Part shown: piece by piece, positions 53,515 to 55,783 of the stretch
How positions within the stretch are numbered: the first letter of the stretch is position 1
How the letters are laid out: the number at the start of each line of letters is the position of its first letter
Source: Escherichia coli
GTDB taxonomy: Bacteria; Pseudomonadota; Gammaproteobacteria; Enterobacterales; Enterobacteriaceae
NCBI RefSeq assembly: GCF_001677475.2
Contig: NZ_CP015229.1
Reading direction: 5' to 3' (one strand)
DNA length: 64,000 bases
Notes under the pieces: model-generated
What the model saw: the letters and a program-made list of their open reading frames with translations, nothing else
Database searches by the model: none
What the model was told of the DNA's origin: nothing
Translations under genes and position numbers: made by a program

Positions 53515-53754
53515 AATTATGCCTCACTGTATTGACAACACAGAGCCTGAAGCTCTGACCTACTGTTTCACCCATGTTCCATGCTGGGGTTATCTATCAA
53601 CATTGCGCTGTGTGTAAGATGAGCAATGCATAGCTGTAATGCCGTTGTATAAGGTTTCCCTGTTTGCTCATTTCCTTCTGAGCCGCTCTACAACGCTGAA
53701 GACACATTAAATAGTGAATCCAAAGTCGTATTACGAAACGGTGGCAAAACTATA

Positions 53755-53770
53755 ATTTATTAGAGCAATT
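53755..53770. promoter_or_regulatory. C1 operator (inverted orientation)
   Basis: aatttattagagcaat. Confidence 0.6.
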
Positions 53771-53835
53771 GTCAAACAACTATGAAAAACAATCCAGTTT
53801 TTGGCTGGTGGAGTGGGATTTATCTCTCAAAATAT

Positions 53836-53852
53836 ATTGCTCTAATAATTCT
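53836..53852. promoter_or_regulatory. C1 operator
   Basis: attgctctaataattct. Confidence 0.6.
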
Positions 53853-53894
53853 TGTTTTTTATGCGCAGCTGGACGTAAACTCCTCTTCAGACCT

Positions 53895-53928
53895 AATAAC
53901 TTCGTATAGCATACATTATACGAAGTTA
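53895..53928. other. loxP: loxP recombination site
   Basis: exact ATAACTTCGTATA-GCATACAT-TATACGAAGTTAT. Confidence 0.98.
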
Positions 53929-54118
53929 TCTTAAGGGTTATTGAACATGATCAATTTACCTGTAAATCCATACAGTTCAATACCTTATCAGGTCAAATAG
54001 TGATCACTTGATCATTTGATCAAGGTTGCGCTACGTAAAATCTGCGAAATGTTGGCAGTGTTAGTGCTCCAGATTTCGCGTAGCGCACTTAGCACCACCA
54101 ATCAATCAGAGGTGAAAA

Positions 54119-54340
54119 ATGGGATATTCAGCTGCTAAAGTGTCCACTCATCTTGAGCTTGAGAAAAACCGTGGTTACTGGCGGGCAAAAGGGTTTGAGC
54201 GTGATAGTTACCAACTGTCATTATCTCGCGGTGAAGAGAAAATAGAACGCACGCGCGGTCGCTGGCGTTTCTATGACGAGAACCATAAACAGGTAAAGGC
54301 AGATCCAATCCTGTACACTCTGCTGAAAACAATAATTTAA
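54119..54340 (+). CDS. hypothetical protein between loxP and cre
   Basis: 73 aa ORF, aggtga RBS. Confidence 0.4.
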   Translation: MGYSAAKVSTHLELEKNRGYWRAKGFERDSYQLSLSRGEEKIERTRGRWRFYDENHKQVKADPILYTLLKTII

Positions 54341-54359
54341 CTTGATCATGAGGTGATGC

Positions 54360-54755
54360 ATGTTTAATAGCCTGACGGATGCCAAGGTAAACGCCTTACT
54401 TAAGGACGCAAAACAAAAAGCTGCTAACCCTGGAACGAGTGAAAATGAACGTGCTATGGCCGTTGCAATTTGGGAGTTAGCAGAAGAAGTAAAGCGAAAC
54501 CGCATGCAGTACACTCGGGTTTACCAGCAATTTGATGGTGCAAGCTGGAAAGATATCGAAGAGGCTGAATATTCAGCATGCAAAGAAGAAAAAAAGACTG
54601 TTCGGATTTTGCATGAAGCAGCAACTCCAATCACTGTAGAAATCCCCGATCACAGATATTTCGAGAACGATGATCTACCTGGGGATGTGATTCGAATTAT
54701 TGATGAGATACTTCATGAACAAGGCTTAACTGTTAAAATTACGCATAATAAATGA
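54360..54755 (+). CDS. hypothetical protein, stop overlaps cre start
   Basis: 131 aa; ATGA overlap with cre ATG at 54752. Confidence 0.45.
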   Translation: MFNSLTDAKVNALLKDAKQKAANPGTSENERAMAVAIWELAEEVKRNRMQYTRVYQQFDGASWKDIEEAEYSACKEEKKTVRILHEAATPITVEIPDHRYFENDDLPGDVIRIIDEILHEQGLTVKITHNK

Positions 54756-55783
54756 CTAAATCGTTAACCGTTCACCAAAATTTGCCTGCATTGCCGGTCG
54801 ATGCAACGAGTGATGAGGTTCGCAAGAACCTGATGGATATGTTCAGGGATCGCCAGGCGTTTTCTGAGCATACCTGGAAAATGCTTCTGTCCGTTTGCCG
54901 GTCATGGGCGGCATGGTGCAAGTTGAATAACCGGAAATGGTTTCCCGCAGAACCTGAAGATGTTCGCGATTATCTTCTATATCTTCAGGCGCGCGGTCTG
55001 GCAGTAAAAACTATCCAGCAACATTTGGGCCAGCTAAACATGCTTCATCGTCGGTCCGGGCTGCCGCGACCAAGTGACAGCAATGCTGTTTCACTGGTTA
55101 TGCGGCGGATCCGAAAAGAAAACGTTGATGCCGGTGAACGTGCAAAACAGGCACTAGCGTTCGAACGCACTGATTTCGACCAGGTTCGTTCACTCATGGA
55201 AAATAGCGATCGCTGCCAGGATATACGTAATCTGGCATTTCTGGGGATTGCTTATAACACCCTGTTACGTATAGCCGAAATTGCCAGGATCAGGGTTAAA
55301 GATATCTCACGTACTGACGGTGGGAGAATGTTAATCCATATTGGCAGAACGAAAACGCTGGTTAGCACCGCAGGTGTAGAGAAGGCACTTAGCCTGGGGG
55401 TAACTAAACTGGTCGAGCGATGGATTTCTGTCTCTGGTGTGGCTGATGATCCGAATAACTACTTGTTTTGCCGGGTCAGAAAAAATGGTGTTGCCTCGCC
55501 ATCACCCACCAGCCAGCTATCAACTCGCGCCCTGGAAGGGATTTTTGAAGCAACTCACCGATTGATTTACGGGGCTAAGGATGACTCTGGCCAGAGGTAC
55601 CTGGCCTGGTCTGGACACAGTGCCCGTGTCGGAGCCGCGCGAGATATGGCCCGTGCCGGAGTTTCAATACCGGAGATCATGCAAGCTGGTGGCTGGACCA
55701 ACGTAAATATTGTCATGAACTATATCCGTAACCTGGATAGTGAAACAGGGGCAATGGTGCGCCTGCTGGAAGATGGCGATTAG
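54752..55783 (+). CDS. cre: Cre tyrosine recombinase
   Basis: 343 aa; sequence from LTVHQNLPALPVD onward matches Cre as recalled. Confidence 0.97.
   Translation: MTKSLTVHQNLPALPVDATSDEVRKNLMDMFRDRQAFSEHTWKMLLSVCRSWAAWCKLNNRKWFPAEPEDVRDYLLYLQARGLAVKTIQQHLGQLNMLHRRSGLPRPSDSNAVSLVMRRIRKENVDAGERAKQALAFERTDFDQVRSLMENSDRCQDIRNLAFLGIAYNTLLRIAEIARIRVKDISRTDGGRMLIHIGRTKTLVSTAGVEKALSLGVTKLVERWISVSGVADDPNNYLFCRVRKNGVASPSPTSQLSTRALEGIFEATHRLIYGAKDDSGQRYLAWSGHSARVGAARDMARAGVSIPEIMQAGGWTNVNIVMNYIRNLDSETGAMVRLLEDGD

Follow-up and report, generated by a model that had tools for sequence, protein, structure and literature searches.

Few recombination tools are as widely used as Cre/lox, and how the system is regulated in nature is only partly understood. 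The locus described here raises the question of why loxP and cre lie about twice as far apart as in P1, where the additional gene between them came from, and what it means for the production of Cre. The window, the 64,000-nucleotide stretch of Escherichia coli contig NZ_CP015229.1 that was analysed, is a P1-type phage-plasmid in which c1 and coi (minus strand) are followed by loxP, cra, ORF131, cre, c8 and ref. The overall explanation that we favour, and consider probable, is that an otherwise ordinary P1 control region has received one added cistron, imported, coupled to cre and encoding an accessory protein. The lox-cre region with cra, its Dam sites and its promoters has long been known, and ORF131 is already present in RefSeq and in the PHROGs. 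In the searchable literature no description of ORF131, of its coupling to cre or of patch-wise exchange was found, and comparative papers on P1-like elements were silent on cra, cre and ORF131.

Layout of the lox-cre locus

The features of the interval are as follows, in window coordinates.

53896-53929: loxP, the 34-bp Cre recombination site (ATAACTTCGTATAGCATACATTATACGAAGTTAT), an exact canonical match, annotated as lox in the P1 and P7 records
53949-53952: GATC, equivalent to "Dam methylation site 1" in the regulatory region of P1 cre, placed by the alignment in which window position 53913 is P1 base 1
53958-53977: LexA box (CTGTAAATCCATACAG), the same sequence as in P1 (P1 46-65), within the leftward promoter P2coi
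54002-54021: GATC trio at 54002, 54010 and 54018, the last two being P1 Dam sites 2 and 3
54016-54021: -35 of promoter pR1/P3cre, overlapped by Dam site 3
54028-54086: imperfect palindrome with 17-nt arms (54028-54044 and 54070-54086; 15/17 complementary) and a 25-nt spacer
54036-54041: -10 of pR1/P3cre (TAAAAT), within the left arm of the palindrome
54109-54115: Shine-Dalgarno sequence of cra (GAGGTGA)
54119-54340, plus strand: cra, 73 aa, basic (pI 9.7), 94.5% aa identity to P1 Cra, phrog_804 at 1e-33
54195-54200 and 54219-54224: -35 and -10 of pR2/P2cre, inside cra, transferred from the P1 annotation by alignment
54312-54317 and 54332-54336: -35 (TGTACA) and -10 (ATAAT) of pR3/P1cre, at the end of cra, transferred from P1 by alignment
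about 54300-54775, plus strand: putative recombinant patch with the cra 3' end, ORF131 and the first 8 cre codons
54350-54356, plus strand: Shine-Dalgarno sequence of ORF131 (GAGGTGA), of the same design as that of cra
54360-54755, plus strand: ORF131, 131 aa, with a run of seven A at 54589-54595
54752-54755, plus strand: ATGA overlap of the ORF131 stop (TGA) and the cre start (ATG)
54752-55783, plus strand: cre, tyrosine recombinase of 343 aa, PF00589 at 6e-33, 98.5% aa identity to P1 Cre

AF234172, in which the right half of lox ends at base 17, cra spans 207-428 and cre spans 436-1467, was used as the P1 reference. The segment from lox to the end of cra (53913-54340) aligned with it base for base at ~96% identity, and the distance from loxP to cre was 822 bp in the window versus 418 bp in P1, in line with the original prediction of about 820 bp, some twice the P1 value. 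The extra length is a true indel relative to P1 and no alignment artefact, as the window carries a ~400-bp ORF131 segment where P1 has a 7-nt spacer. In P1, P7, SJ46, phi456 and a typical plasmid, the junction reads cra-TGA-GTGTTAA-ATG-cre and Cre begins with MSNLL. In the window, cra is followed by a 19-nt spacer carrying a strong ribosome-binding site for ORF131, and Cre differs from that of P1 at residues 2-4 (MTKSLTVHQ versus MSNLLTVHQ), which bears out the unusual N-terminus noticed at the outset. Two ORFs of 73 and 131 aa had been predicted between loxP and cre, the second overlapping the cre start through ATGA. Both ORFs and the overlap were found, but only ORF131 explains the longer interval, since the 73-aa ORF is P1 cra (ORF1 of X03453), equal to it in length. 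Accordingly, when canonical P1 was inspected for the same ORFs and spacing, it contained the first ORF and neither ORF131 nor the wider spacing.

P1 (X03453, Sternberg 1986; AF234172) has an identical loxP and shares the LexA box, the Dam sites, the promoter hexamers and the palindrome. By alignment, cra, the GATC sites, pR1-pR3, the LexA box and the palindrome are all canonical P1, and ORF131 is the sole extra gene. The GATC cluster and the palindrome, noticed at the outset, are indeed present, but both belong to the canonical cre promoter region of P1, whose annotation includes Dam sites 1-3 and P3cre/pR1. The window has one site more than P1 in this cluster: at 54002, P1 and phi456 read GACC, and P7, SJ46 and one ordinary P1-like plasmid read GATC. 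P7, SJ46 and ordinary P1-like plasmids thus have the same GATC trio as the window. The LexA box is kept in the Salmonella lineage too. The palindrome arms are conserved between the E. coli and Salmonella lineages (window and loci L002-L017), whereas the 25-nt spacer is almost wholly different; as RNA the palindrome has a folding energy of -32.4 kcal/mol (z = -2.3). The conserved arms, with the pR1 -10 hexamer in one of them, suggest a protein-binding operator or a structured element, one without annotation in P1. A generic promoter and terminator scan of the lox-cre interval detected nothing, the known P1 promoters being too weak for that consensus, and an Rfam search of 53700-54900 gave no credible match.

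The window shares with the P1 (Punavirus) module loxP, a Cre tyrosine recombinase, cra and a predicted Dam/LexA promoter region, and departs from it at the 7-nt cra-cre spacer, where ORF131 intervenes. Judged from gene order and alignment, it is a variant architecture of the P1 lox-cre module.

Product names in public records can mislead at this locus: many RefSeq plasmids list Cra as "creatininase", and a large number of phage records name Cre "GST-loxP-cre recombinase fusion protein". A stretch containing loxP (53887-53929) also matched the portal gene of Lactococcus phage Q33 (43 bp, 95%), and single plasmid records of Alicyclobacillus, Nonomuraea and Pseudobutyrivibrio matched somewhere in the 53700-55000 query. 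These four matches are probably engineering scars or vector contamination.

Coding status and distribution of ORF131

The pattern of variation identifies ORF131 as a genuine protein-coding gene. The frame was intact at exactly 131 codons in five protein variants with identity down to 84%, and the dN/dS ratio for divergent pairs was 0.11-0.35. The 70 variable nucleotide sites were distributed as 15, 12 and 43 over codon positions 1, 2 and 3, and the Shine-Dalgarno duplex energy of ORF131 (-6.9 kcal/mol) was close to that of cra (-7.1 kcal/mol). It is therefore very improbable that ORF131 is a non-functional chance or decaying frame that serves only to bring ribosomes or promoters to cre. Such a frame would agree with the lack of homologues and domains, with the low-confidence fold described below and with the existence of two frameshifted copies; its intact length through 12-16% divergence, a dN/dS well below 1, the roughly three-fold enrichment of variation at third positions and a strong, well-spaced Shine-Dalgarno sequence argue against it. 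The frameshifts are 1-nt deletions in A-runs, each splitting the gene, in two single-sample short-read assemblies (L018 and L019): in one, the run of seven A at 54589-54595 is shortened to six, and in the other an AAA run is affected. They may be null alleles or assembly errors, and if real they suggest that ORF131 is dispensable.

Database comparisons indicate that ORF131 is an orphan with no detectable relatives outside P1-like phage-plasmids. It is annotated in RefSeq as "hypothetical protein", and its full-length match was phrog_20152 (PHROG 20152, without annotated function; E = 6.7e-84, residues 1-131 of a 131-position profile). Searches against Pfam and NCBIfam gave no credible match, the weak ones lying far below family cutoffs. 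When 5.8 billion proteins were searched by word index, six clusters emerged, each of them from E. coli or Salmonella. Exhaustive HMMER comparison with 1.84 billion representatives yielded the cluster of ORF131 itself, a truncated copy, one repetitive and probably spurious match, and nothing else.

The predicted product is a soluble, acidic, mostly helical protein, with a pI of 5.2, a net charge of -6, a hydrophilic composition and a predicted long helical hairpin at its beginning. AlphaFold, with an alignment of six sequences, gave a pLDDT of 52 overall and ~70 for the N-terminal hairpin alone. With this low-confidence model, Foldseek found nothing below E = 1 in the PDB, and in a PDB sequence profile search the sole match was a designed coiled coil (E = 0.18); these structural results were taken as uninformative.

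Three candidate identities were tried and rejected. An Xis-like directionality factor is disfavoured by the pI of 5.2 and net charge of -6 and by the lack of any Xis, AlpA or winged-helix match in Pfam, NCBIfam and PHROG. For a known anti-phage defence protein, the PADLOC profiles gave no family at E <= 1. An Ocr/ArdA-type DNA mimic is not indicated either, ORF131 being only mildly acidic (-6), with no match in Pfam and, for the low-confidence model, none below E = 1 in Foldseek.

The gene is rare and plasmid-borne. Its DNA segment was present in 0 of 24 P1-like phage records, and tblastn of the protein against 50,697 phage records gave no match. It occurred in 13 of the 704 matching P1-like plasmids of PLSDB, all from E. 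coli, non-mobilizable and ~87-117 kb in size, and in 31 of 5,426 complete E. coli genomes, always on a plasmid. As cre was found in 694 complete E. coli genomes, the share with ORF131 is 31/694 (~4.5%). Many of the ORF131-positive hosts are O111 or O103 strains. The gene was seen solely at one position, adjoining cre. Separately, 11 of 700 cre matches in complete E. coli genomes were chromosomal, which could reflect integrated P1-like elements or assembly joins.

Origin of the ORF131 patch

Relatives of the locus were found in a Salmonella P1-like plasmid lineage (L003-L007), taken from draft assemblies. These loci have a loxP identical to that of the window, an ORF131 that is 84-86% identical and the same ATGA-coupled arrangement with a 342-aa Cre, on a backbone that is far more divergent. 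Their operon consists of orf356, cra (71 aa), ORF131 and cre, with stop/start overlaps at orf356/cra and ORF131/cre; orf356 (356 aa, phrog_7674) lies between the promoter region and cra (L003 2699-3981). In a second Salmonella lineage (L012/L013), ORF131 is absent and the order is orf68, orf356, cra, cre (L012 3883-5411), with orf68 (68 aa, phrog_19934) further upstream and a 7-nt cra-cre spacer, GCAGACA, unrelated to the GTGTTAA of P1. Neither orf356 nor orf68 had a Pfam match. The lox sites of this second lineage (L012 3662-3695 and L013 3662-3695) are variants with the spacer ACACACAT instead of GCATACAT, that of L013 also having one change in the right arm (TATGCGAAGTTAT). The Cre encoded beside them shares ~80% identity with that of P1; in the first Salmonella lineage, where this figure is 81%, loxP is exact.

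The similarity between the window and the first Salmonella lineage is concentrated in one segment. Relative to L003, cre showed 71% DNA and 81% aa identity with a synonymous difference (pS) of 0.80, and cra 65% DNA and 60% aa identity with a pS of 0.63, whereas ORF131 was ~88% identical in DNA (48 differences in 393 bases) with a pS of 0.30. Over the patch at ~54300-54775, 413-422 of 476 positions (87-89%) were identical to L003/L005, compared with 110/181 (61%) in the upstream part of cra and 715/1008 (71%) in the remainder of cre. In sliding windows, identity to L003/L005 was 82-98% within the patch, with a dip to ~70% near 54559-54618, and 50-75% on either side. The patch has its boundaries within the terminal ~40 nt of cra and the initial ~25 nt of cre; there, E. 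coli elements with ORF131 show the Salmonella-type variants ...ACTCTGCTGAAAAC... and ATGACTAATTCGTTAACC, where P1 has ...ACTTTACTTAAAAC... and ATGTCCAATTTACTGACC. The N-terminus MT(N/K)SL of Cre travels with the patch.

These contrasts in identity and pS indicate that the patch has a far more recent common ancestry with Salmonella-type P1 relatives than its flanks have. Their simplest reading is that a P1-type backbone acquired the ~470-bp patch from a Salmonella-type relative through homologous recombination. Cre would then start with MT(N/K)SL and not with MSNLL because the crossovers fell in the conserved end of cra and start of cre. The low GC3 of ORF131 (0.34, against 0.50 in cre) fits a separate history. 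Unusual constraint instead of transfer could in principle produce the same similarity, but the contrast at synonymous sites argues against it.

The opposite history, in which ORF131 is ancestral to the whole P1 group, was deleted in classical P1 and independently in a Salmonella lineage, and persists in the window as the primitive state, would account for its presence in two divergent backbones. The unrelated 7-nt spacers of P1 and L012/L013 are what independent deletions would leave, and direct TTAACT repeats (54337-54342 and 54726-54731) could mediate such a deletion. Co-divergence from a common ancestor, however, predicts equal divergence along the operon, and the pS of ORF131 is 0.30 as against 0.63-0.80 for its neighbours. 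The high-identity tract also stops sharply within cra and cre, the E. coli flanks of ORF131 carry Salmonella-type variants, and in more distant Cre relatives (42-45% identity) the recombinase gene follows the upstream gene with nothing annotated in between. We therefore regard ancestral presence followed by loss as unlikely, and continue with import as the preferred reading. A related proposal, that the MSNLL of P1 arose by a deletion fusing the ORF131 start to cre, was rejected, as the first 17 bases in P1 match ORF131 at 12 positions and Salmonella-type cre at 14. In the junction comparison, the P1 cra-cre spacer could be aligned either to the Shine-Dalgarno region of ORF131 or to its 3' end.

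Probable coupling to cre, possible role and comparison with known systems

Translational coupling of ORF131 and cre, as originally predicted, is well supported by the sequence of the junction. The two genes show the features of a coupled pair, namely an overlapping stop and start and a downstream gene without its own ribosome-binding site. The anti-Shine-Dalgarno duplex of cre in the window was +1.5 kcal/mol, that is, no Shine-Dalgarno sequence, as opposed to the strong one of ORF131. In elements lacking ORF131, cre has a weak one (-2.5/-2.3 kcal/mol) and itself starts 7 nt after the cra stop; the window cre has lost even the weak Shine-Dalgarno sequence present in P1. The ATGA overlap was conserved at all ORF131-bearing loci in both backbones, and RNA folding at the junction gave no significant or stable structure. 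The predicted pR3 hexamers are retained directly upstream of ORF131.

As cre lacks a Shine-Dalgarno sequence in the window, its translation most likely proceeds by termination-reinitiation from ORF131; an internal promoter or non-Shine-Dalgarno initiation are possible alternatives. In the mechanism that we propose, ORF131 would lie behind pR3 and be translated from its own strong ribosome-binding site, and ribosomes ending ORF131 would re-initiate on cre within the ATGA. Reinitiation would make Cre output dependent on ORF131 translation, which would gate Cre synthesis and hold Cre output below that of ORF131. In ordinary P1, cre may depend in a similar way on the translation of cra.

As to what the protein does, our best guess is that ORF131 is an accessory ("moron"-type) protein that would be made together with Cre, both in the plasmid prophage and soon after infection. 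An obligatory role in recombination seems unlikely, and since ~95% of P1-like elements work without it, an accessory protein is favoured over an essential recombination factor. The accessory reading rests on the absence of homology and on the low-confidence structure (pLDDT 52), and the confinement of ORF131 to the position beside cre would fit a Cre-related role too. The selectivity of Cre is higher in vivo than it is in vitro, and an accessory factor has yet to be found (PMC2409434).

We have also weighed a dedicated Cre/lox modulator, which would bind Cre, tune synapsis, resolution bias or toxicity, be co-translated for stoichiometry and perhaps mimic helix A of Cre. Consistent with this, ORF131 always lies directly upstream of cre with the ATGA in two backbones whose Cre proteins are merely 81% identical, and it is acidic (pI 5.2) beside a basic Cre (pI 9.7). 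Weak similarity was also detected between the two proteins: residues 41-66 of ORF131 matched residues 20-45 of Cre (helix A and the start of helix B) with a BLASTP E value of 0.007, the Smith-Waterman score of this stretch was reached by 14 of 3000 shuffles, and the N-termini of ORF131 (MFNSLT) and the neighbouring Cre (MTNSLT) are alike. The Ser and Leu codons of these two N-termini differ, so this is not a DNA repeat. The similarities between the two proteins may be due to chance or go back to an ancient partial duplication of the 5' end of cre. Against a modulator, hhalign profile-profile comparison gave the ORF131-Cre similarity a probability of only 1.5%, ~95% of P1-like elements, P1 included, run Cre/lox without ORF131, no DNA-binding or Xis-like domain is recognisable, and transfer by recombination accounts for the co-location as well. 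AlphaFold of an ORF131-(GGGGS)5-Cre fusion was uninformative, giving a pLDDT of 38 with a shallow alignment and with Cre itself unfolded. On this balance a modulator is unlikely. Still more doubtful is its most specific form, in which ORF131 would be the first natural Cre partner, an acidic, co-translated protein whose central helices derive from or mimic Cre helix A/B and which docks to restrain or bias lox recombination. Were that so, it might favour dimer resolution or limit Cre toxicity, as a portable regulator swapped among P1-like phage-plasmids.

For the accessory protein that we prefer, the implications are more modest. If ORF131 is merely an orphan accessory gene, its recognition is a useful annotation note and little more. 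The locus itself is a clean, small case of gene-sized patch exchange between P1-like elements ~30% apart in DNA. With cre placed behind an extra, exchanged gene, the predicted coupling offers a simple handle on how phage-plasmids set Cre dosage, and the locus makes it possible to ask whether Cre works together with any phage protein.

Among known systems, the STEC P1-like plasmids (NC_013370.1 from O111:H- 11128, and NZ_CP124376.1) have the same cra-ORF131-cre order as the window. NZ_CP124376.1 is 98.2% identical to the window over 53700-55000, with an ORF131 that is 98.5% identical, and the ORF131 of the other 12 plasmids is 91.6% identical to the window protein. Their Cre starts with MTNSL, as against MTKSL in the window. 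Beyond the P1 group, lambda xis-int offers a parallel, a small ORF lying immediately upstream of, and overlapping, a recombinase gene in one operon. Xis-type factors are small basic DNA-binding proteins, and to our knowledge Cre/lox has no directionality to control. Unlike Xis, ORF131 is acidic and matches no Xis or helix-turn-helix family; like xis, it is a small gene placed directly upstream of the recombinase gene that it overlaps.
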